Source of the DNA: Candidatus Pacearchaeota archaeon
GTDB taxonomy: Archaea > Nanobdellota > Nanobdellia > Pacearchaeales > GW2011-AR1
Direction: 5' to 3'
NCBI GenBank assembly: GCA_046705325.1
Contig: JBJKQQ010000002.1
Coordinates: 1 to 38,195 of the forward strand
DNA length: 38,195 bases
The position numbers were made by a program, and so were the translations under genes. The notes beneath the pieces are model-generated. The model was not told the DNA's origin, made no database searches, and was given only the letters and a program-made list of their open reading frames with translations. Shown here piece after piece: positions 3,268 to 11,735 of the stretch (position 1 is the stretch's first letter; every line of letters begins with the position of its first letter).

Positions 3268-3518
3268 TGTTTTATCCTTTTCAGGTGAACCGGCTCAATC
3301 AGAAACTGCTTCGCCTTGTTCTGCGTTTTTATTTCAACTATGTAAGATTTTCCGCGCTTGTCTTTCACGGTTCCGGTAAGCCCCTGAATCCTCAATGGAA
3401 ACTTCGAGCTAACCGAAGGCTCTTTGACTACAGCGACGGGTTCCCCTTCCCTGAACTCCTGAAAAATTCTGTTGAGTCCCGGCCTGGCTTTGCTTTCTAT
3501 CCTTTTGCTCTTGCTCAT
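3264..3518 (-). CDS. rpl21e: 50S ribosomal protein eL21
   Basis: 84 aa with FREGEPVAVVKEPSV...FPLRIQGLTGTV..KRGKSYIVEI...K.FLIEPVHLKRI. Confidence 0.8.
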   Translation of the reverse strand: MSKSKRIESKARPGLNRIFQEFREGEPVAVVKEPSVSSKFPLRIQGLTGTVKDKRGKSYIVEIKTQNKAKQFLIEPVHLKRIKQ

Positions 3519-3575
3519 AATTTACCGAGAAATATGTTCTTTAAAAAGCTATTTGTTTTGCGAAAATCTTTGCGC

Positions 3576-3773
3576 TTACATGAATTTTCTGTCGGTGCCG
3601 TCAAGCAAATCCGGCCTCATGTTCTCGAGGTTTCCCTTGTCTCTGGCTTCGTCTGTCGTCTTCTTTATCGCGTCGAACATTTTCTTTCCCCAGACCTTCT
3701 CGCCGCAGCGGTCGCAGATTTCCATGGACCTGTCGTCGAGCAAATCCGAATTGCAGTAAACGCATCGCCTCAT
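3576..3773 (-). CDS. Small zinc-ribbon protein, function unknown
   Basis: 65 aa with CxxC (CVYC) and CxxC (CDRC) pairs. A TATA-like CTTTAAAAAG lies about 35-40 nt upstream on the minus strand. Confidence 0.5.
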   Translation of the reverse strand: MRRCVYCNSDLLDDRSMEICDRCGEKVWGKKMFDAIKKTTDEARDKGNLENMRPDLLDGTDRKFM

Positions 3774-3826
3774 TTTTTCACCTAACTTTGCTGAAGCAGG
3801 AAATTCTTTTTAAAGATTTGTATTGT

Positions 3827-3835
3827 TTCGTGATA
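3827..3835. repeat. Left copy of the 9-bp target-site duplication TTCGTGATA
   Basis: Identical 9-mer in direct orientation at 9186-9194, immediately outside the terminal inverted repeats. Confidence 0.8.
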
Positions 3836-3852
3836 GGCTTTGTAAATTAAGT
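3836..3852. repeat. Left terminal inverted repeat (17 bp)
   Basis: GGCTTTGTAAATTAAGT, a perfect reverse complement of 9169-9185. Confidence 0.85.
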
Positions 3853-3884
3853 CCTGATTTGGGCTGACTTTTTTTACAGAAAAC

Positions 3885-5297
3885 TTAGTCTTTCCTTAAT
3901 ATTTCCTGCATAAAAATATCACTACTTTTAGCCCTTAGTTCTTCGGCTTCTTTTATCAGAGTTTTTGCCTTTTTATAATCTTGATTAACCAGACTTATTA
4001 TCTTTTCTTGTGTTGTGATATTAGGCAGGGGAATTAAGGTATCGTAAAGTTCAGGGTCTCCTATCCTATCTCTTGAAGAACCTCTAATTGAATATTCCCA
4101 CTGCCTTAGGACATAAGGCGTTCTCAAAATAATCCAGAGATATTCGGGCAAAATTTTTTCAGAAACTATTTTCACAGGAATTAACTCTCCACTCCCTAAA
4201 AATCCATCTGTTTTTTCATCAACAATTATTATTTTTCCTTTTTCAGGTTGTAATCTTGAAATCAGTAATTCACCTTTCCTGAATACAACTTTGTCGCTCC
4301 CCAAAACAGGAACTTCTTTGATATTCTTTACTTCTCCAAAGTTTTCGTCTATGTCATATAATTCAACAAGGTCATAAAAGGGCTTTGGGGAAATCTCTCC
4401 TTTTTTTTGTATCTCAATAAGCTTTTCAAGAACTTCATAATCTCTTTTTTCTACTATGCCTCTTATCTTTTCTCTAAAAGGGCTATTAAATAAAGCGTCT
4501 ATTCTATCCAAATCAAGAGCGGAAGAATAGGTATTGAATTTTGATTTTTCTGGTAACTCTTCAAGTCCTAAAATTTTTCCTATCTTTTCATCTAATGCAA
4601 AGATTGTTTTTTGGCTTTCTTTTTTCTTGCTTTCAATATCTCTCTCAAGTTCTTCTATCTTCCTTATCGTCTCTCGCTGTTTGCTCAAACTTATCTCGCT
4701 GTCTGAGACAGGCAAAGAAATTTCAATCTCTCTGCAATTCTTGAGACTTAATTTATACTGCAAAGAACCGACAGCTAATCTGCTCGTCTGCATTTTACAA
4801 AAAGAAGTATTAAGCATATGAACTAAAAATTGAGTATCAATCTCATCCGTCTTTTTTCTTATCCTCGCAACATTTTCACTGAAAGCATTTTCTTGAAGAG
4901 GGGAATTAACAATTCCAACCTCTCCAATAGTCCCGACAATCGTAATAACTAAATCATCCTTTTTTAGATTGTAATTTTTTATTTGGGTATAGATTTCAGG
5001 ATTTATCTTCTTGCAGTCCTCAAAATCTATTCCCCCATCTTTCACGTCAGTAGCACTGATGTAAGGAATAGTGGTAAGCTCTGATTGTATCACAACCAAA
5101 CCTTTAGGCAATCTCTTCCCCCCGCTTACTCTTGCAACTCTTTCATCGCCTAAAGGTAATAATTCATTATTTTTGTTAGATAACTTCTTCCTTATGTTTT
5201 GAATTTTCCTTAGAAGGTATGGGCTATTAAATAAAGCGTCCAATCTTTCTGTCTTGTCATCTGTCAAGTCAAGAGAATAAAAATTTTCTTCATTCAT
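3885..5297 (-). CDS. hsdS: Restriction-modification specificity subunit (HsdS-like, two target-recognition halves)
   Basis: 470 aa. Each half opens with a (L/I)DALFNSP(Y/F) conserved segment (about residues 19-26 and 265-272). The two divergent TRD-like halves are separated by a charged, apparently helical spacer (residues ~205-225, KQRETIRKIEELERDIESKKKE). It overlaps the upstream MTase gene by 8 nt. Confidence 0.8.
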   Translation of the reverse strand: MNEENFYSLDLTDDKTERLDALFNSPYLLRKIQNIRKKLSNKNNELLPLGDERVARVSGGKRLPKGLVVIQSELTTIPYISATDVKDGGIDFEDCKKINPEIYTQIKNYNLKKDDLVITIVGTIGEVGIVNSPLQENAFSENVARIRKKTDEIDTQFLVHMLNTSFCKMQTSRLAVGSLQYKLSLKNCREIEISLPVSDSEISLSKQRETIRKIEELERDIESKKKESQKTIFALDEKIGKILGLEELPEKSKFNTYSSALDLDRIDALFNSPFREKIRGIVEKRDYEVLEKLIEIQKKGEISPKPFYDLVELYDIDENFGEVKNIKEVPVLGSDKVVFRKGELLISRLQPEKGKIIIVDEKTDGFLGSGELIPVKIVSEKILPEYLWIILRTPYVLRQWEYSIRGSSRDRIGDPELYDTLIPLPNITTQEKIISLVNQDYKKAKTLIKEAEELRAKSSDIFMQEILRKD

Positions 5298-7200
5298 TTC
5301 CTTTCAAAAATTCTTCATATTTATCATAAATCTTGGGTAAGTCATTAAGCTCCATAGTTTCTTTTCCTGCGTCATTATGCCCGACATTCTCGCTTATAGC
5401 CATAAAGACTTTTCCTTGTGTGTCTTTTGCTGATTTCTTTATTAAGTAAAGTATAGATGTTTTAACTCCTGCGTCTGCATTAACGAAAGTATTTTTAGGC
5501 AGGGAAATTATTGCCTTGATGATAAAATGATTTCTCAACCAATCTCTAAATCTTTTATATTCGTCTCCTTGTCCGTCTGCATTAAGGACGCTCTCGTCAA
5601 TTATTGTTATCAATTTTCCGCCTTCTTTCAGCAAATCAAAATATCTTTCAATAAACATAACATTTGATTTCAGGGAACGTATCTTATCCGAGTTTTCTCT
5701 TCCTTGAGGATATGCTAAATCGTATTGAGGCAAAATTCTTTTGTCATAATTATCCGACATTTTATATTTCATGCTGAAAGGGGGATTAGTCATAACAATA
5801 TCAAACCTCTTCTTTTCAAATAATTCTTTCAGTTCTTCTAATTCTTCTTTCCTCTCATCATTTAACCCTTTTGGAATTTCTACCTCTTTATCCAAAGTAT
5901 CTGCTAAAAATATATGGCTTCCCCCGTCTCCATGAAGATACATATTCATGCGGGCAATAGGAATAATCTTGTCCTCGCTTTTGTCAATCCCGAAAAGGCA
6001 TTTCTCCTTTATTTTCTTTTTTAGAACATCTTGATTAGTCTTGCAGTTCTTAGCTTTGTTTATCAAATCGCTAAGGGCAAAAATTAGGAAACCACCCGAA
6101 CCACAGCAACCATCTAAAATTAATGGCGGTTCGTAATCTTCTTTTTCCTTGTTATATTTTATCTGCAAGTTAGCTAACTTAGTCATAAATTTAACAACAG
6201 GTCTCGGAGTGAAGAACATTCCCAACTCTTTCCCCCTTATCACCGCACTCAAAAAAGTTTCAAAAACACGCCCGTTAATGTCATCCTCAACGCTCTTTAA
6301 GTCAAGATTTTCTATAAGCTTGGTTATCTCAATCGTGGTTTCTGTTTGCAATCCCAATTCTTCATTATCTTCAAAAATTCTTTTCTTCTCTTTTCTCTGG
6401 ACTTTTTTGTTTAATTCATCTCTGTATTGTTTGAACAGAACGTCCATCGGGTTTGCTTGTCTCTTGCTTAATTCTCTAATCCTATCAACAGAAAAGAATA
6501 CTTCTTCTTTAGGGATTGGCTTGTCTTTTTCTATTAACTCGTGAATTTTAGCGTCCTCATTTATCTTAACAAATAATAATTTAGTAAATCTGTAAAATGC
6601 TTCTTGAGGAGAAAGATTGTGTTTTTTCCAAATCAGATAATGGCACTGCTGGAAAATTCCCTTAAGCTCATCTATATCTGGTTGTCTGAACTCAAAGATT
6701 TCATCCTCTTTGCCTTTTATGTTTTCTCTTAATGAATTGTAAGAATAAACCTCTTTCAGTTTTTCATATTTCTTATTTCCGTCAATAAAATCTGAAAAAC
6801 TTAATTCAAGCACTGGTTTGTTTTCATCAAGTCTTAACAGGCAGGTTTTTATTCCGTTGCTAACCAAACAATAAGTTATTGGATTTGTCCCGATATACCC
6901 TCTGTTTATTATCTCTGAATAATCTTGTGCTTCATGGAAAAAGTCTTGGACTTCTAAATCAGGATGTTTTGCCTCAACAACAGAAATGATTATCCGATTG
7001 CTTCTCAAAGCATAATCGGGTCTATGTTCTGTTTTCTTCGCTCCTTTTCCGATTAGATATTTTGGTATTAAATGCTTTGTCTGAATATTTGTGTCCTTGT
7101 ATCCTAAATCCTTTAACAACCTGTCAATAAAGAAATGTTCAACGTCGCTCTCGTTTCTCAATACACTTCTCTCGCAGAATTTGTTTTTTTCTGCAACCAT
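5290..7200 (-). CDS. Gamma-class N6-adenine DNA methyltransferase (HsdM-like) fused to an N-terminal HSDR_N/PD-(D/E)xK-like domain
   Basis: Motif I LDGCCGSGGFL precedes motif IV VMTNPPF. The N-terminal roughly 100 aa contain HRPDYAL...ISVVEAKHP (PD...ExK pattern). Confidence 0.8.
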   Translation of the reverse strand: MVAEKNKFCERSVLRNESDVEHFFIDRLLKDLGYKDTNIQTKHLIPKYLIGKGAKKTEHRPDYALRSNRIIISVVEAKHPDLEVQDFFHEAQDYSEIINRGYIGTNPITYCLVSNGIKTCLLRLDENKPVLELSFSDFIDGNKKYEKLKEVYSYNSLRENIKGKEDEIFEFRQPDIDELKGIFQQCHYLIWKKHNLSPQEAFYRFTKLLFVKINEDAKIHELIEKDKPIPKEEVFFSVDRIRELSKRQANPMDVLFKQYRDELNKKVQRKEKKRIFEDNEELGLQTETTIEITKLIENLDLKSVEDDINGRVFETFLSAVIRGKELGMFFTPRPVVKFMTKLANLQIKYNKEKEDYEPPLILDGCCGSGGFLIFALSDLINKAKNCKTNQDVLKKKIKEKCLFGIDKSEDKIIPIARMNMYLHGDGGSHIFLADTLDKEVEIPKGLNDERKEELEELKELFEKKRFDIVMTNPPFSMKYKMSDNYDKRILPQYDLAYPQGRENSDKIRSLKSNVMFIERYFDLLKEGGKLITIIDESVLNADGQGDEYKRFRDWLRNHFIIKAIISLPKNTFVNADAGVKTSILYLIKKSAKDTQGKVFMAISENVGHNDAGKETMELNDLPKIYDKYEEFLKGNE

Positions 7201-7233
7201 AGAGTTTAAATACGTTTCGCATATTTAAACTCT
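7201..7233. promoter_or_regulatory. Palindromic promoter/operator of the MTase-S operon
   Basis: AGAGTTTAAATA-9 nt-TATTTAAACTCT forms perfect 12-bp inverted arms, each containing TTTAAATA. The minus-strand TATA (7229-7222) is centred about 25 nt from the MTase ATG (7200). Confidence 0.6.
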
Positions 7234-7295
7234 TCGTTTTTAAGCTTTTCCCGATTAGTTACGTCGCAGGCGTAACAGAATTCCCATTTTCATTC

Positions 7296-8540
7296 TTACA
7301 ATTCTTTTGTCTGCTCCAAAATAAACTCGGATTTTATGCCGAGTTCGTTCACTTCTTGGATTACAACGCAGATGTTATGGCAGAGGACTTTAAGCAAAAG
7401 TTCATTATATTGGGCTGTTTTGTTCTTGCTCCTTATCGCTCCGCCGAACTTTGCCTTAATCATGTGGAAAGTCGTTTCTACATTACTGCGGGCGTGATAG
7501 TGTTCAAGAAATTCATCATGCTTGTATAGAAAATAGTGATACATTTTTCCCCACAGACCGAGCGTTCCTCTTTTTCCTGAAACATTTTTCTTGAACGGAA
7601 TGAAAGCAACTCCGCCGACTTCGTCAATTACCTTAAGATTTGCTCGGCTGTTGTATGCTTTATCTCCACTTTGTTCTTTTATTGTGAAGTTCTCGGCTGT
7701 CTTTCTTACGAGTTCGGCAAGTTGCGGGCTGTCGTTTTCAGTTCCTTCCGTAACCTTGACTGAAGTGATGATGTTTGTTTTTGTCCCTGCATTTATGTGG
7801 GCTTTGAGCCAGACTTTATACTTTCGCTCCTTTCCCCATTTGTAATCAAACCAACGAGCATATCTTGAAGTTGAAAATCCCGAACTGTCAACTGCGAAGC
7901 TCGTGTCTGTTTCTTTCAACGGCAACGAGCTTAATGTAATCAGGTTTTCAAGTATCGGCGTCATCTCTGGCTTGTTCATATAATTGCTGACGCTCATATA
8001 AGTCGGCTCGTTCTCAATCAATCCGAACTCTTTGGCTATCTTGACATCGGACATGAACCGCCTTAAAGAAAATGTTGAATAAACTTTGAGAGCCGAATTA
8101 AAAATCATTTCCGAGATTGGAAGATTAGGTCTTCCGAATTTATATTCTGGCTGTTCAACATTATCCGCCAAATCTTTTAACAACCTCATAAAGATTATTT
8201 TCTCATTTGTTTGCGACTTGTCGTATGCTTTCCAATCTTGCTTATAGCTAACCTTTACGCCTTTGGTCTCTATGATTTTTCCTTCTTCGTCTATCTGCCT
8301 TTTTATGTAAAGCTCAACAGCGATTATATGCTTGCATTTCTTATGTCGCAGTTCGCAATCAGGACACGAGCAGACAGGATTTTCATTCCTGAAAATTACT
8401 TTGTATGCTTTGAACGAGGTTTGAGAGCCGACAACCCAAAAGTTATTCTGCTTTCTTATCCTTCCACGCTGAAAGATTAGCTTTCCTTTCTGCTCTCGGT
8501 CAAGATTTCTCAAATCCACCGATTGTATCTTTGTATTCAT
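7296..8540 (-). CDS. DDE transposase (IS4/IS5 superfamily) with an N-terminal SWIM zinc finger
   Basis: SWIM signature CSCPDCELRHKKCKH. Candidate DDE residues lie in FAVDSSGF, SGDKAYNS and NVETTF. An exact Y-x2-R-x3-E-x6-K signature is present (YHARSNVETTFHMIK). Confidence 0.85.
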   Translation of the reverse strand: MNTKIQSVDLRNLDREQKGKLIFQRGRIRKQNNFWVVGSQTSFKAYKVIFRNENPVCSCPDCELRHKKCKHIIAVELYIKRQIDEEGKIIETKGVKVSYKQDWKAYDKSQTNEKIIFMRLLKDLADNVEQPEYKFGRPNLPISEMIFNSALKVYSTFSLRRFMSDVKIAKEFGLIENEPTYMSVSNYMNKPEMTPILENLITLSSLPLKETDTSFAVDSSGFSTSRYARWFDYKWGKERKYKVWLKAHINAGTKTNIITSVKVTEGTENDSPQLAELVRKTAENFTIKEQSGDKAYNSRANLKVIDEVGGVAFIPFKKNVSGKRGTLGLWGKMYHYFLYKHDEFLEHYHARSNVETTFHMIKAKFGGAIRSKNKTAQYNELLLKVLCHNICVVIQEVNELGIKSEFILEQTKEL

Positions 8541-8547
8541 AATATAT

Positions 8548-8633
8548 TTAGATACCTAACCTTTATATACTTTTCGGTATCTAAAAGTATAAGTTGCAGA
8601 ATAGAAATCTTTATAAATAATAGGTATCTAAAA
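8548..8633. promoter_or_regulatory. Divergent promoter region with three copies of the 9-mer GGTATCTAA and two TATA boxes
   Basis: TTAGATACC at 8548-8556 (inverted), and GGTATCTAAAA at 8576-8586 and 8623-8633. TTTATATA (8562-8569) lies about 25 nt from the transposase ATG. TTTATAAATA (8610-8619) lies about 25 nt from the AbrB-like ATG. Confidence 0.55.
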
Positions 8634-8638
8634 AGGAC

Positions 8639-8800
8639 ATGAAATTGCAGAGCCAAATTTCAAGAAAGGTCGGTGAAACTGAATATCTTAAATCTTGGGT
8701 TGTTATACCTAATAAAATTCTTGAACAGCTTAAATGGAAATCGGGTCAGGATTTGGACGGAGAAGTTAAAGATGGCAAGTTGATTGTTAAGAAAAAATGA
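8639..8800 (+). CDS. AbrB/SpoVT-type (MazE-like) small DNA-binding protein, 53 aa, absent from the supplied ORF track
   Basis: Manual translation: MKLQSQISRKVGETEYLKSWVVIPNKILEQLKWKSGQDLDGEVKDGKLIVKKK. It shows the swapped-hairpin pattern v.IPk.i...L.wk.Gd.l...v.dgklivkk. Its stop overlaps the next ATG (ATGA). Confidence 0.65.
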   Translation: MKLQSQISRKVGETEYLKSWVVIPNKILEQLKWKSGQDLDGEVKDGKLIVKKK

Positions 8801-9138
8801 ACAAAAAAATTTATGAAAAATTAAAAGATGTTGCAAGAAGAAAAGACACAATTTCTTATTCACAATTAGCAAGTGATTGTAATTTCCCTTATTCTTCTAT
8901 TGATGAAAGAAATAAGTTTCATGAATTATTGGTGGAGATTTCAAGATTTGAAGTAGCAAATGGAAAGCCAATGTTATCTGTATTAGTTCATCATAAAGGA
9001 GATGTTGAAAGAAAATGTGGAAAAGGATTTTTTGAATTAGCAGATGAACTTAATCAGAGAAAAGAAAATGAAAAAGGAAATGATAAAAAAATGCAATATA
9101 GGATTATTGGAGAAGTTTGGAAAGAATATAACAAGTAA
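8797..9138 (+). CDS. Hypothetical 113-aa protein translationally coupled to the AbrB-like gene; possibly a winged-helix fold
   Basis: The ORF has a 4-nt ATGA overlap with the upstream gene. TISYSQLA...LLVEISRFEVANGKPMLSVLVHHKG is loosely reminiscent of MGMT/ATL-type wHTH but lacks a catalytic Cys motif. T-rich tracts follow the stop. Confidence 0.5.
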   Translation: MNKKIYEKLKDVARRKDTISYSQLASDCNFPYSSIDERNKFHELLVEISRFEVANGKPMLSVLVHHKGDVERKCGKGFFELADELNQRKENEKGNDKKMQYRIIGEVWKEYNK

Positions 9139-9168
9139 TTTTTTTCAGAGACTTTTTTTACAAAAGCC

Positions 9169-9185
9169 ACTTAATTTACAAAGCC
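9169..9185. repeat. Right terminal inverted repeat (17 bp)
   Basis: ACTTAATTTACAAAGCC, the reverse complement of 3836-3852. Confidence 0.85.
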
Positions 9186-9194
9186 TTCGTGATA
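9186..9194. repeat. Right copy of the 9-bp target-site duplication TTCGTGATA
   Basis: Identical to 3827-3835, in direct orientation. Confidence 0.8.
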
Positions 9195-9229
9195 GTAACG
9201 TTTAAAAACTGAAGTTCAGGTGTAATACC

Positions 9230-9427
9230 ATGATAATTCCGGTAAGATGTTTTTCATGCGGCAAGCCGCTCGGCCATTTGTGGGAAGAATACAAGCGCCG
9301 CGTCGCGGAAGGCGAAAAGTCCAGCAAGGTCCTCGACGAGCTGGGCATAGAAAGATTCTGCTGCAGGTCTGTGTTCCTCGGGCAAACGGATTTGATTGAG
9401 CTGGTCGGCAAATTCAAGAAAGCTTAA
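9230..9427 (+). CDS. rpoN: RNA polymerase subunit N (Rpo10)
   Basis: MIIPVRCFSCGKPLG..WEEY......G......LDELGIERFCCR. TATA TTTAAAAA (9201-9208) lies about 25 nt upstream of the ATG. Confidence 0.9.
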   Translation: MIIPVRCFSCGKPLGHLWEEYKRRVAEGEKSSKVLDELGIERFCCRSVFLGQTDLIELVGKFKKA

Positions 9428-9689
9428 GCTTGCTGATTTTATATCTGGATACATAATCGCAATTTCCGCATTCAATTGATTTTATTCCTTTGTTAATTTT
9501 GATTTTTTCTTTTCCTGAATAAGGCATCAAACACTTTTTGCAAAACGATTTTCTTTTTTCGCGAAGCCTGATGTTTGAATTCGCAGCCAGCTTCTTAATT
9601 TTCTTGACTTCTTTCGGAGTTTTGTTTTTTATATCCACAAAAAATTCTTCAATTTGTTTCGCGGCTTCAGACTTTGAAAGTTTTTTCAT
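9414..9689 (-). CDS. rnp4: RNase P protein component 4 (Rpp21/Rpr2 family)
   Basis: 91 aa with a basic helical N-terminus followed by the zinc ribbon FCKKC...ECGNC. It converges on rpoN with a 14-nt overlap. Confidence 0.7.
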   Translation of the reverse strand: MKKLSKSEAAKQIEEFFVDIKNKTPKEVKKIKKLAANSNIRLREKRKSFCKKCLMPYSGKEKIKINKGIKSIECGNCDYVSRYKISKLKLS

Positions 9690-10078
9690 TCAATTAATAC
9701 CTCCAATTCAGGATAGTTCTCCTTGCATCTCTCTGCCAGTAGCCTTCTATGGCATTTCTCTGAGGTTTTTTCAATACAGAGCAATCTTATATCTTTTCCT
9801 GCTGCTGCAAGGGTAAGATTCTCCACTTCTTCTCGTATGGAATCAAGATAATCAAAGTATCTTTTTTCAAACTCTTCCCAAGGAAGATATCTTTTATAAT
9901 AATCTCCAATAAGTTTTAATGGCGGCGCAAAAACATTCCAATGTTCATCGTAAGAAATGCCTTCGGTTATTCTCCTGTCCAGAGTTGTTCCGTCATTCAG
10001 GGTGTGCCTCGACATAATAGAAACCCTCAGAGTATCTTGTTCATTGTAATAAGTCAGAATGCAACCTGTTTTTAGCAT
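9686..10078 (-). CDS. DUF488 family protein
   Basis: HW..FAPPLKL...Y......WEEFEKRYFDYL.......L......K.IRLLCIEK..EKCHRRLLAE is the typical DUF488 pattern. Confidence 0.65.
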   Translation of the reverse strand: MLKTGCILTYYNEQDTLRVSIMSRHTLNDGTTLDRRITEGISYDEHWNVFAPPLKLIGDYYKRYLPWEEFEKRYFDYLDSIREEVENLTLAAAGKDIRLLCIEKTSEKCHRRLLAERCKENYPELEVLIE

Positions 10079-10298: not shown

Positions 10299-10382
10299 GC
10301 GGGGGTGCCGGAGTGGTCAAACGGGCAAGATTAAGGCTCTTGTGGGTTAGTCCCTACACAGGTTCGAATCCTGTCTCCCGCA
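10299..10382 (+). tRNA. Class-II tRNA-Leu. The anticodon loop TTAAGGC reads AAG in the canonical register.
   Basis: The cloverleaf folds by hand. Acceptor GCGGGGG/CTCCCGC, anticodon stem CAAGA/TCTTG, long variable arm GGG..CCC, T arm ACAGG-TTCGAAT-CCTGT, discriminator A. TATA-like sequence lies about 29 nt upstream. Confidence 0.8.
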
Positions 10383-10433
10383 TGCATCGACAGGATTCTG
10401 GACCCCGGATCGAAAACATGGAGGAGGTTTTCA

Positions 10434-10454
10434 TTCGAATCCTGTCTCCCGCAT
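10434..10454 (+). repeat. 21-nt direct duplicate of the tRNA-Leu T-loop/acceptor 3' end
   Basis: TTCGAATCCTGTCTCCCGCAT at 10363-10383 recurs exactly at 10434-10454. A T5 run (10454-10458) follows only the second copy. Confidence 0.85.
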
Positions 10455-10566
10455 TTTTCAAGTTTAAGTTAAATCTCTTCAAAGAAAACCGGCCAAAAAG
10501 AGATACGCTTGGTTAGCTTAGATAGTTTAGAGAAAGATATATAAAATTAAGATTCTTCTTAAATTC

Positions 10567-11607
10567 ATGAAAATATTGTTGTCTAGAGAATCAAAGAAAA
10601 AACTACTTAAGTCCTTGCTTGAAAAAAATTTTTGCAGTTCTCTAAAGGAACTTTCAGAGATTCTAAAAATATCCAAGGGAACTTTAAGCGATTGGTTTTA
10701 TTCTGGAAAGAGATATTTGCCTGAAGAGATCATCCCTATACGCTTGAAGAGCAGGTTGCAAATTTTGGATCTCCAAAAAGATAATTGGGGGAAGATTAAG
10801 GGAGGAAAAGAAACTTACAAAATAATCTCCAAAAAATACGGGAAATCTGAAATCAAAAGAAGGCAGTCTCGGGGAGGAAAAGTTTCTGGAGAAAATCGGG
10901 GGAGCCTCGACAAACCTCTAAATCTTGATTTATCAAACAAATATCTTTTGGAATTCTACGGCGCGCTTCTCGGCGATGGCTGGATGGGAATATATAATGC
11001 TAAGAAAAAGCCCATTTATCTCATTGGTATTGCAGGCCATCTGACCCGGGATAAGGATTATCTTCTTTATCTGAGAGAAATAGTAAAAAGGTTTTTTGAC
11101 CGGAAAGGTTATCTGAAAGAAAGACCCCGCTACAATTGTTTAGAATTGCATTGTTATCATAAAAAACTCCTCTCCTTTTTTAATCAAAAATTAAACTTTC
11201 CTGTTGGCAAAAAAATTAATTTAAAGATCAACGATGAAATAGTCGAGTCTGGTTTTGATAAAATGAAATATGTGATAAGAGGAATATTTGATACTGATGG
11301 CTCTTTTTATTTAGACAAAGATCCTGCCGGAATGCCTTATCCTTGCATTTCCTTAACAATGAAATCTCCTCTGCTTTTGGAACAGGTTAGTAAGGTCTTG
11401 TTGAACGAGGGATTCAAAGTGAGTTTCAGGAAAGAGAAATATATGCTAACTCTGAAAGGAAAAAAACAAGTTTCTAAATGGTTAAAATCGATAGGTTTTT
11501 CAAACGAAAAACACCTAAAAAAGATAAGGTCCTGTAACTCAGCCTGGATAGAGTGCCACCCCCCTAAGGTGGAAGTCGTAGGTTCAAATCCTATCAGGGC
11601 CGCTTGA
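10567..11607 (+). CDS. LAGLIDADG homing endonuclease (double-motif) with an N-terminal HTH-like region. The ORF tail reads through tRNA 11528-11602.
   Basis: LAGLIDADG motifs LLEFYGALLGDGWM and VIRGIFDTDGSFY. TATATAAAA (10538-10546) lies about 25 nt upstream of the ATG. There is no in-frame stop before 11605-11607. Confidence 0.8.
   Translation: MKILLSRESKKKLLKSLLEKNFCSSLKELSEILKISKGTLSDWFYSGKRYLPEEIIPIRLKSRLQILDLQKDNWGKIKGGKETYKIISKKYGKSEIKRRQSRGGKVSGENRGSLDKPLNLDLSNKYLLEFYGALLGDGWMGIYNAKKKPIYLIGIAGHLTRDKDYLLYLREIVKRFFDRKGYLKERPRYNCLELHCYHKKLLSFFNQKLNFPVGKKINLKINDEIVESGFDKMKYVIRGIFDTDGSFYLDKDPAGMPYPCISLTMKSPLLLEQVSKVLLNEGFKVSFRKEKYMLTLKGKKQVSKWLKSIGFSNEKHLKKIRSCNSAWIECHPPKVEVVGSNPIRAA
11528..11602 (+). 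tRNA. tRNA, probably Arg(CCU). The anticodon loop is CCCCTAA, with an unusual C at position 33.
   Basis: A 75-nt cloverleaf. Acceptor GGTCCTG/CAGGGCC, D arm ACTC..GAGT, anticodon stem CCACC/GGTGG, T arm GTAGG-TTCAAAT-CCTAT. Confidence 0.7.
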
Positions 11608-11664
11608 TCTCTTATGAATTTCAAACATAAACTTTAAAATATGCCTTCTCAATAAGAATTATAA

Positions 11665-11735
11665 GCGCCGGTGGTTTAATGGTAGAATCTCTGCCTTCCA
11701 AGCAGATGACCCGGGTCCGATTCCCGGCTGGCGCA
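11665..11735 (+). tRNA. tRNA-Gly(UCC)
   Basis: Acceptor GCGCCGG/CTGGCGC, anticodon stem TCTGC/GCAGA with loop CTTCCAA, T arm CCGGG-TCCGATT-CCCGG. TTTAAAATA at 11634-11642 lies about 28 nt upstream. Confidence 0.85.

Follow-up and report, generated by a model that had tools for sequence, protein, structure and literature searches.

In a 38,195-bp stretch of DNA from a Candidatus Pacearchaeota archaeon (assembly GCA_046705325.1, contig JBJKQQ010000002.1; the whole stretch is called the window below), an element of 5,350 bp (positions 3836-9185) lies between a gene for a Zn-ribbon protein and the divergently oriented rpoN gene. We interpret this element as a DDE transposon that moves as a single unit, is not composite and belongs to an IS903-like lineage within the IS5 family, and we consider this interpretation well founded (probability roughly 0.9). 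Besides a transposase gene, the element holds four passenger genes, two of which encode a restriction-modification (R-M) system and two a small AbrB-type cassette. Its relatives make up what is apparently a large, undescribed family, in which most of the cargo consists of R-M genes.

Ends, empty site and unit of movement

The element is bounded by perfect 17-bp terminal inverted repeats (TIRs), each abutted by a copy of a 9-bp direct repeat. These features had been pointed out in an initial annotation of the window, and their coordinates were confirmed. The TIR GGCTTTGTAAATTAAGT occupies 3836..3852 on the plus strand, at the end farther from the 5' end of the transposase gene (the right end, RE, in transposase orientation), and has the form GGCTTTG...AAGT, as in 49 relatives described below. 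Its exact reverse complement, the left end (LE), is located at 9169..9185 on the minus strand. The target-site duplication TTCGTGATA is present as a left copy (3827..3835) and a right copy (9186..9194). These are the only two copies in the window; both lie on the plus strand and abut the TIRs, while dinucleotide shuffles contained the 9-mer 0.21 times on average and never twice. The 17-mer had no third match in the window with up to 3 mismatches allowed (dinucleotide shuffles: mean 0.19), and the family-level end pattern GGCTTTGNNNNWWAAGT gave no window match beyond the two element ends. Within the window, the 17-mer is thus confined to the element ends and is not the common genomic repeat that it might have been. 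Other readings of the borders can be made, as a repeat finder returns arms of 18 bp since A3835 and T9186 happen to pair, and the direct repeat is readable as 10 bp with the G that follows both 9-mers. However, the combination of 17-bp TIRs and a 9-bp duplication is the sole symmetric reading and agrees with all 49 relatives, and is therefore preferred. The GC content of the element is 0.347, against 0.445 in the left flank, in line with the earlier remark that the enclosed genes are AT-richer than their surroundings. Inside the element the composition is mosaic (S gene 0.338, RM gene 0.340, transposase gene 0.400, AbrB cassette 0.290). No known RNA families were found in window 3300-9700.

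Evidence for insertion comes from three independent assemblies of relatives in which the site is empty: L002 (NCBI GCA_975959525.1) and two Logan sequences, L003 and L004, all retrieved by exact-sequence look-up of the neighbouring RpoN protein. In each of them, the Zn-ribbon gene (encoding 65 aa) and rpoN are divergent over a 97-bp spacer with a single 9-mer, which reads ...GTATTGTTTCGTGATAGTAACGTTT... (in the longer stretch ...GATTTGTATTGTTTCGTGATAGTAACGTTTAAAAAC...). The spacer equals the window sequence minus 3836-9194, base for base, and all five element genes are missing together. An empty site with a spacer of about 97 bp had been predicted from the window, and this is what was seen. 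It is the pre-insertion state, because DDE excision normally does not restore such a site. The coding flanks of the empty-site genomes differ by 6-13% from the window; consequently, the insertion, which had been called recent, is so in a relative sense only. Despite this coding divergence, the divergent promoter spacer is 100% identical (window 3774-3835 and 9186-9229 compared with L002 6613-6709), which implies strong constraint on the 97 bp between the Zn-ribbon gene and rpoN.

It could be argued that only the transposase gene (7296-8540) is mobile, while the R-M and AbrB genes are residents and the outer repeats fortuitous. In four relatives (L006, L007, L010 and L034), one TIR does lie ~45 bp past the transposase stop, indicative of a small minimal backbone, and one relative is just 1.8 kb long (L022). 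In the same four relatives, however, the other end is several kb off, with cargo between. Furthermore, no TIR-like sequence flanks 7296-8540 in the window: with up to 5 mismatches allowed, only scattered chance matches were obtained, the best interior ones having 4-5 mismatches and none lying at the gene borders; the separate pair of ends which, by the initial annotation, would have spoken against its reading is thus not seen. The supposition is also contradicted by L002-L004, which lack all five genes and contain a single 9-mer, and a perfect 17-bp inverted repeat with an abutting 9-bp direct repeat is far beyond chance. We consider mobility of the transposase gene alone extremely improbable.

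Alternatively, the element might be a genomic island that arrived by means of a site-specific recombinase, homologous recombination or a composite transposon, its IS903-like transposase being a passenger. The spacer is indeed variable. In L104 and L105 (1583-4864), which belong to the host of the closest sibling of the window element, the same Zn-ribbon/rpoN spacer is occupied by a ~3.1-kb four-gene ABC-transporter block (MacB/FtsX, ABC_tran) without a transposase, from which it appears that this spacer gains DNA repeatedly; serine recombinase genes are found nearby in L002 and L104. Nevertheless, there is neither an integrase nor a second insertion sequence (IS) copy inside or beside the element, and the ends are of the kind that the transposase's own family has in 49 relatives, always with a 9-bp duplication, which is the IS903 signature. 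The island explanation is thus, in our opinion, very improbable. As for a composite transposon in particular, it was rejected on the grounds that the element has one transposase gene and no interior TIR-like sequence save the subterminal site that abuts LE (9150-9168, see below). Given the empty sites, the lack of inner ends, the lack of a second copy and the lack of an integrase, the mobile unit is the full 5,350 bp, i.e. the whole element with its cargo and not a minimal IS, as had been proposed at the outset.

An identical transposase was found elsewhere only in L001, a 2.6-kb internal fragment that is 100% identical to window 6409-9002. Neither the look-up of identical transposases nor a metagenome scan with the 29-nt end gave a second insertion site of the identical element. 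The lone metagenome match to the 29-nt end was L087 (Ga0210057_1010775, 1-230), which shares a 37-nt end with the window element at 1 mismatch. Its interior and flank are unlike the window, the end is followed by a duplication-length spacer and then by CAAAACTTTATAAAG, and the contig begins 212 nt inside the element. The single window copy, the want of a second site and the solitary match L087 might suggest a dead relic that inserted once and is no longer mobile. Such a fate seems unlikely to us in view of the perfect TIRs and duplication, the full-length transposase reading frame with all invariant family residues intact, and a sibling with an 84% identical transposase that has at least three different junctions in metagenomes.

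The transposase and its ends in comparison with IS903

The transposase (414 aa, 7296..8540, minus strand) matches Pfam SWIM (residues 53-79) and DDE_Tnp_1 (residues 215-390, E 9.4e-22). The SWIM zinc ligands C57-x-C59...C69-x-H71 are situated in an N-terminal domain of ~100 residues, and the catalytic set consists of D218, D293 and E355, with the signature Y348-x2-R351-x3-E355-x6-K362. Across 23 family members, none of the DDE, YREK and zinc-ligand residues varies, so that the IS4/IS5 YREK signature noticed earlier is borne out. By its DDE_Tnp_1 domain, its D, D and E residues and the Y-x2-R-x3-E-x6-K motif, the protein is a member of the IS5 family. The top NCBIfam model was transpos_IS5_2 (NF033579), matched over its full length with 124.8 bits across residues 103-390 (cut-off 140); with the same model, IS17 scored 411 bits and the IS of plasmid L085 387 bits. 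In BLASTP, the IS903 transposase was 24% identical (E 2e-10), the alignment spanning two aspartates and YxxRxxxE. In an AF2 model (pLDDT 71.8), a small N-terminal domain is joined by a disordered linker (residues 87-110) to the catalytic domain. The nearest Foldseek matches were the ISCth4, Tn5 and P-element transposases, all weak (E ~1e-3, TM 0.2-0.3); they support the fold class only and say nothing on the SWIM domain. Judging from its sequence, the transposase is best placed as a divergent sister to the IS903 group, from which it is set apart by an additional SWIM domain at the N-terminus. MULE/Mutator-type transposases are the known SWIM-bearing ones, and this type was considered and rejected, because Pfam gives DDE_Tnp_1 and SWIM only and the SWIM domain is N-terminal.

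The initial annotation had stated that IS903 makes 9-bp duplications and how its inverted repeat starts, and both statements proved right. Both ends of IS903 (L112, a Klebsiella plasmid in which it is annotated as such) read GGCTTTGTTGAATAAATC, and a 9-bp duplication is tabulated for it (PMC2577343). Likewise, the IS of plasmid L085 has GGCTTTGTTGCACAAG ends and a perfect 9-bp duplication; the ends of IS17 read GGCTTTGTTGCACAAA, and both IS17 and the L085 IS end in GGCTTTGTTGCACAA. The window element is like the IS903 group (IS903, IS17, ISAha2) in ends that start with GGCTTTGT (the criterion being GGC(TTTGT)), in the 9-bp duplication and in a transposase with DDE and YREK residues. Its family is also partly similar in the target half-site, RAAA as compared with TRAAW in the target preference reported for IS903, WTTYA-N9-TRAAW (PMC2577343).

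In other respects the two differ considerably. According to the ISfinder description, members of the IS903 group are compact, with ~1 kb, one transposase gene and simple terminal repeats. IS903 itself has ~1.06 kb, one gene and simple 18-bp repeats, whereas the window element, with 5,350 bp and five genes, lacks this compactness and falls below the curated score, while having the ends and the duplication of the group. Also unlike IS903 are the SWIM domain, the asymmetric co-varying subterminal sites and the insertions phased to archaeal promoters, to which we return below.

Subterminal sites, which the initial annotation does not mention, became apparent when both ends of 41 elements were aligned over their outermost 70 nt. 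At the transposase-proximal end, the inner part of the TIR, yTG-core-AAAAGTC, is repeated directly behind the TIR, and often a third copy follows. At the far end, the TIR and a spacer of ~12 nt are followed by one or two inverted copies, GACTTTTT-core-CAG. The core varies among elements (GTAAA, GTGTA, GCCCG, GCTCC and others) but agrees at all sites within one element: the element's own 6-nt core recurs at LE in 29 of 41 elements and, inverted, at RE in 31 of 41, compared with 5-6% for foreign cores. In the window element, the second end-motif copy (GGCTTTTGTAAAAAAAGTC read inward) lies at 9150..9168 on the minus strand, where it abuts the TIR of LE, and such a copy is present in most relatives. 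The inverted inner-TIR copy GACTTTTTTTACAG lies at 3866..3879 on the plus strand, 13 nt inside the TIR of RE. The window contains the 13-mer GACTTTTTTTACA at two places only, the 3866-3879 site and 9150. Since co-variation of cores is expected of protein-binding sites, the subterminal sites are predicted to be bound by the transposase. Nothing comparable is present in IS903. Two relatives (L030 and L075) show the asymmetric arrangement of subterminal sites the other way round with respect to their transposase gene, indicating that the orientation of this gene with respect to the ends is not fixed in the family.

Passenger genes and the wider family

The R-M genes of the window element are both located on the minus strand. 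The S subunit (3885..5297, 470 aa) has two target-recognition domains and matches Pfam Methylase_S in two stretches (E 4.4e-17) and PADLOC Specificity_I (E 2.5e-31). The RM subunit (5290..7200, 636 aa), whose gene overlaps the S gene by 8 nt, is a fused nuclease-methyltransferase with Pfam matches to HSDR_N, N6_Mtase (E 7.9e-39) and Eco57I; its HSDR_N part (residues 55-120) contains a PD...EAK motif and its N6-adenine methyltransferase part contains NPPF. The best solved relative of the RM subunit is RM.BsaXI (8w0p, E 5.5e-29, residues 14-594). The pair is therefore best assigned as a BsaXI/BcgI-like type IIB system of RM and S subunits, which it resembles in the fused RM subunit (N-terminal PD..EAK, NPPF), the separate two-domain S subunit and the lack of a helicase. 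It differs from BsaXI in the size of the RM subunit (636 aa compared with 916 aa in BsaXI); as a type IIB enzyme, it would be predicted to cleave on both sides of its recognition sequence. A type I system was rejected, since the HsdR translocase/nuclease subunit is absent in or beside the element; no ResIII or helicase gene was found within the element, and the absence of the helicase subunit is what speaks for type IIB. Of the R-M module noted initially, the R-M genes as such remain, not as a type I system but as a two-gene type IIB one. Between the transposase stop and the RM start, a perfect 12-nt palindrome AGAGTTTAAATA..TATTTAAACTCT is found (7201..7233), which could serve either to terminate transcription or, as a TATA-containing site, to control the RM gene.

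The two remaining genes are located on the plus strand. The first (8639..8800) encodes a protein of 53 aa that weakly matches the AbrB/MazE fold (MazE_antitoxin 22.8 bits, cut-off 24.7; TIGR01439 AbrB 19.3 bits, cut-off 28.3). The second (8797..9138) overlaps it by 4 nt and encodes a protein of 113 aa that belongs to no Pfam, NCBIfam or PADLOC family. Only 18 homologues of the 113-aa protein were found. Three contexts were examined; in all of them the homologue was encoded by the second of two small overlapping genes, and in two of them methylases were close by. Homologues in L100, L101 and L103 stood beside a C5 methylase and a Schlafen/AlbA_2 ATPase or beside an N4/N6 methylase, in surroundings without a recognisable element of the family, which hints at a link of the 113-aa protein with R-M or defence loci. 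We considered whether the 53-aa and 113-aa proteins are core genes of the family and rejected this, as no homologues of either were detected in the 40 other elements (tblastn, phmmer and blastp clustering); from their absence there, both can be regarded as cargo. The small end-proximal reading frames of other elements are mutually unrelated. The cassette could well be either a toxin-antitoxin pair or a regulator. The AbrB regulator pair of the initial annotation is not established, the 53-aa protein being below the Pfam cut-off and its 113-aa partner belonging to no known family. The region that separates the divergent transposase and AbrB genes (8541..8638) contains three copies of GGTATCTAAA (8547-8556 inverted, 8576-8585 and 8623-8632) and TATA-like boxes, and is a candidate operator.

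Homologues of the transposase are numerous. More than 6,685 were present in the protein database, and most of those with a named source came from Pacearchaeota or Nanoarchaeota. In a scan with one genome per species, 80 loci were obtained, mostly from metagenome-assembled genomes of Woese-, Pace- and Nanoarchaeota together with other archaea. These loci were scanned blindly for ends, defined as a 17-nt inverted repeat (at least 14/17) abutted by a 9-nt direct repeat (at least 8/9). The scan yielded 40 elements of 1.8-11.4 kb that enclose the transposase gene and have GGCTTTG[TC] or AGCTTTG[TC] ends and perfect 9-bp duplications. Nine further elements came from viral-class contigs (three distinct), the closest sibling and a hold-out set of four proteins looked up later. 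In total, there are 49 relatives with intact duplications, or 50 elements with that of the window. The first 45 elements, window included, have a median length of 5.46 kb (range 1.8-11.4 kb, with only L022, 1.8 kb, below 2 kb), and the four hold-out elements measure 3.6-5.0 kb. Although small elements are the easiest for such a scan to find, just one of the 49 relatives is shorter than 2 kb, from which it can be inferred that the carriage of cargo is the rule in this family.

The closest sibling (4,191 bp, 84% transposase identity, duplication GTTTAAAAC) has only the transposase gene (77.6% at the nucleotide level) and the ends of ~50 nt (90-94%) in common with the window element. Its cargo comprises an 814-aa type IIG enzyme and two unrelated small reading frames, and at least three different left junctions were found for it in metagenomes. 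As only the transposase gene and the ends are shared, backbone and cargo behave as modules that are exchanged on both sides of the transposase gene.

Cargo was counted in 172 open reading frames (ORFs) of the 40 genome-scan elements. The Pfam families found were N6_Mtase (18 ORFs), Eco57I (12), N6_N4_Mtase (8), Methylase_S (7), ResIII, HSDR_N_2 and PDDEXK_1 (4 each), D12 methylase (3), and C5 methylase and Mrr_cat (2 each); single matches include GmrSD_N, ThsB_TIR, RE_Eco47II and Vsr. PADLOC results agreed and added type I, II, IIG and III methyltransferases. According to clustering, at least 25 of the 40 elements contain a DNA methyltransferase. A few elements carry transport or glycosyltransferase genes in place of R-M cargo. 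All four hold-out elements carry R-M genes, two of them an MwoI-like enzyme with a C5 methylase and two a fused methylase-specificity protein. Family elements of 3.9-4.4 kb with perfect 9-bp duplications were also present inside viral-class contigs of IMG/VR (L088, L090/L091 and L094); these contigs could be vehicles of transfer from cell to cell, or misclassified cellular DNA.

Several known systems invite comparison. Like transporter IS (tIS) and unit transposons, the window element combines one transposase and one pair of ends that mobilise passengers, and its family has defence-rich cargo; the passengers are enclosed by this pair of ends, and the empty site lacks them as well as the transposase gene. 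Tn3-family and Tn7-like elements are unit transposons with passengers, those of Tn7-like elements including defence genes. The family described here differs from them in being IS5/IS903-like, in its size of 1.8-11.4 kb without resolvase or target-selector genes, and in its mainly DPANN-type archaeal hosts. Mobile R-M units, in which R-M genes are flanked by repeats and target duplications, were reportedly described by Kobayashi and co-workers. They are alike in that R-M genes form part of a selfish mobile unit and in the insertion polymorphism between related genomes. Here, by contrast, the vehicle is defined (transposase, ends, duplication and empty site) and is common to R-M systems of types I-like, IIB, IIG, IIP MwoI-like and III. 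The Asgard 'aloposons' were considered as relatives and rejected, being tRNA site-specific and unrelated. According to a survey from 2019, passenger-carrying transposons had not been detected in archaea (PMC6563490). In the full-text literature, with the ISfinder catalogue aside, we found no description of SWIM-bearing IS5-type transposases or of such archaeal cargo transposons, nor, in the full-text literature, of subterminal sites in the IS5 family or of TATA-phased insertion in archaea.

Target sites at promoter edges and their implications

The promoter-adjacent target is likewise absent from the initial annotation. Target sites were rebuilt for 45 elements and read outward from the duplication, which gave 90 half-sites. 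From the first base outside the duplication, the motif R-AAA-NN-TTTAWAWA was found on one side in 32 of the 45 elements, on both sides in none, and was absent from 13; it lay at the near end in 19 elements and at the far end in 13. We take this motif to be the archaeal promoter consensus, i.e. the B recognition element (BRE) plus the TATA box. The pattern T[AT]TA[AT]A was present at offset 7 in 24 of the 90 half-sites and at offsets 6 and 8 in none, most other offsets having 0-3 (background 0.0035 per position; binomial P 5.6e-38 for offset 7). A second peak at offset 9 (18 half-sites) is read as another register of the same box, since TTTATATA fits both. Of 27 testable sides, 23 had an outward ORF of at least 50 aa, and start codons were most often 35-36 nt from the duplication, a spacing expected for leaderless genes. 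The rule was formulated first and all four hold-out elements then fit it, as did the flank of L087 and the second sibling junction.

In the window, the BRE/TATA-like element of rpoN, GTAACGTTTAAAAA, occupies 9195..9208 on the plus strand, so that it directly adjoins the duplication; the ATG of rpoN follows at 9230 (offset 35). The insertion spares this element as well as the TATA box of the Zn-ribbon gene (3806-3815, minus strand). It is plausible that a 5-kb insertion was tolerated in such a conserved spacer because both core promoters stayed intact.

The same kind of site was used repeatedly. In another lineage (L113-L119; for example L113 1927-6915), a 4,971-bp member with 66% transposase identity and a cargo of MwoI-like endonuclease and C5 methylase has independently inserted upstream of rpoN. 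Counted outward from the duplication, the rpoN ATG is base 36, so that the placement corresponds to that in the window. In L114 and L115, a gene for an unrelated DDE_Tnp_1 transposase of 477 aa lies in the vicinity. In L040 (850-11461), two different elements of 5,126 and 5,459 bp, with differing TIR cores and their own transposase genes, stand in tandem, with three copies of TAACTCTTA beside one BRE/TATA; the transposase gene of the first is frameshifted. If the outermost ends of such a tandem were used, two sets of cargo could be merged, a possible route to cargo exchange.

As for the cause of the promoter adjacency, it could be argued that the element is a unit transposon but that its position reflects which of the insertions at AT-rich, RAA-flanked sites survive in gene-dense genomes, namely those in short spacers that contain promoters. 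The IS903 motif WTTYA-N9-TRAAW (PMC2577343) resembles the R-AAA half-site, which may in part be an inherited preference of IS903 type; half-sites without a TATA box are mildly enriched in A at positions 2-3; no motif was seen in GC-rich bacterial hosts; and the data are fixed natural insertions and not de novo ones. On the other hand, the phasing is exact to a single nucleotide (24 matches at offset 7 against 0 at 6 and 8), the motif is strictly one-sided and has the full BRE-plus-TATA consensus, and the distance to the start codon is constant at 35-36 nt. Moreover, two elements share one 9-mer in L040, and two elements in different hosts occupy the same position upstream of rpoN. Selection for intergenic positions by itself does not predict phasing, one-sidedness or repeated sites, which weakens this explanation; we hold it to be rather doubtful, without dismissing it. 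That the motif is one-sided and has the full promoter consensus, that the phasing is exact to one nucleotide and that one site was used repeatedly argue for insertions truly targeted to the promoter edge. The basis of the adjacency would be the DNA sequence, a promoter bound by TATA-binding protein (TBP) and transcription factor B (TFB), or selection after insertion.

Taking all this together, we lean, with confidence only slightly better than even, to the following reading: the elements form an archaeal (mainly DPANN) family of unit transposons from an IS903-like ancestor, whose transposase actively integrates at the upstream edge of BRE/TATA and which serves as a shuttle for R-M and defence genes. 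Such targeting could proceed through promoter DNA or through docking to TBP/TFB, possibly via the SWIM domain.

Several points weigh against our interpretation and need to be set beside it. The transposase stays under the NCBIfam equivalog cut-off (124.8 against 140 bits) and is only 24-27% identical to transposases of the IS903 group, so that strict membership of this group is not established. No transposition event was observed, the window contains one copy, and the identical transposase is otherwise represented only by the fragment L001. Cargo ORFs were defined by a simple longest-ORF rule, which makes the cargo counts given above approximate. The 13 of 45 elements without the strict motif include all GC-rich, bacterial-looking loci; by eye, several of the remaining ones are near misses. 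Finally, the promoter adjacency may partly represent the survival of harmless insertions combined with an IS903-like RAA preference (WTTYA-N9-TRAAW, PMC2577343).

The proposed behaviour is reminiscent of Ty3. In Ty3, integration is guided to the start sites of RNA polymerase III by TFIIIB, a factor that includes TBP together with Brf1, a homologue of TFB. Both systems are phased to the nucleotide at a TBP/TFB-type promoter, enter a 'safe haven' that spares coding sequence, and rely on a protein of RNase H-like fold. In contrast to Ty3, the insertions described here lie at the upstream edge of BRE/TATA and not at the start site, and the likeness is an analogy only.

The neighbourhood of the element differs from the empty-site genomes in two further places. 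A 346-aa LAGLIDADG_3-like ORF (10567-11607; noted region 10299-11735) lies between tRNA-Leu(aag) (10299-10382) and tRNA-Arg(cct) (11528-11603), and its 3' end extends across the tRNA-Arg gene. Since L002 lacks anything corresponding to 10383-11622, this stretch is a second strain-specific insertion. In addition, the window contains a DUF488 gene (9686-10078, 130 aa, minus strand), in place of which a 61-aa ORF is present in L002 and L003.

The likely course of the insertion is as follows. The element entered the 97-bp Zn-ribbon/rpoN spacer as one piece of 5,350 bp. Its transposase would recognise the 17-bp TIRs and the co-varying subterminal sites, one abutting LE and one inverted 13 nt inside RE, and would cut the target with a stagger of 9 bp to which the ends are joined; repair of the cut would yield the TTCGTGATA duplication. 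The cut lies at the upstream edge of the rpoN BRE/TATA, 35 nt before the ATG, and the duplication keeps the core promoter intact. The type IIB R-M genes and the AbrB-type cassette travel as passengers and, provided that the R-M system is active, probably protect the host and stabilise the element.

The 50 elements provide archaeal cargo transposons with a defined transposase, ends and duplication, where the 2019 survey reported none (PMC6563490). With cargo dominated by R-M genes, the family looks like a main route of defence-gene exchange for the small-genome DPANN archaea. The phasing to BRE/TATA would explain how 5 kb could harmlessly enter a 97-bp spacer between two essential genes, and the co-varying terminal and subterminal sites offer a natural set for following the evolution of transposase-DNA specificity. 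Promoter-directed integration in archaea is a testable model and, if true, would be a prokaryotic counterpart of Ty3-type targeting; if the targeting is intrinsic to the transposase, the system might also become an insertion tool for archaea. If the model holds, the family would be a dedicated shuttle that carries R-M and defence modules into safe, promoter-adjacent slots of compact genomes.

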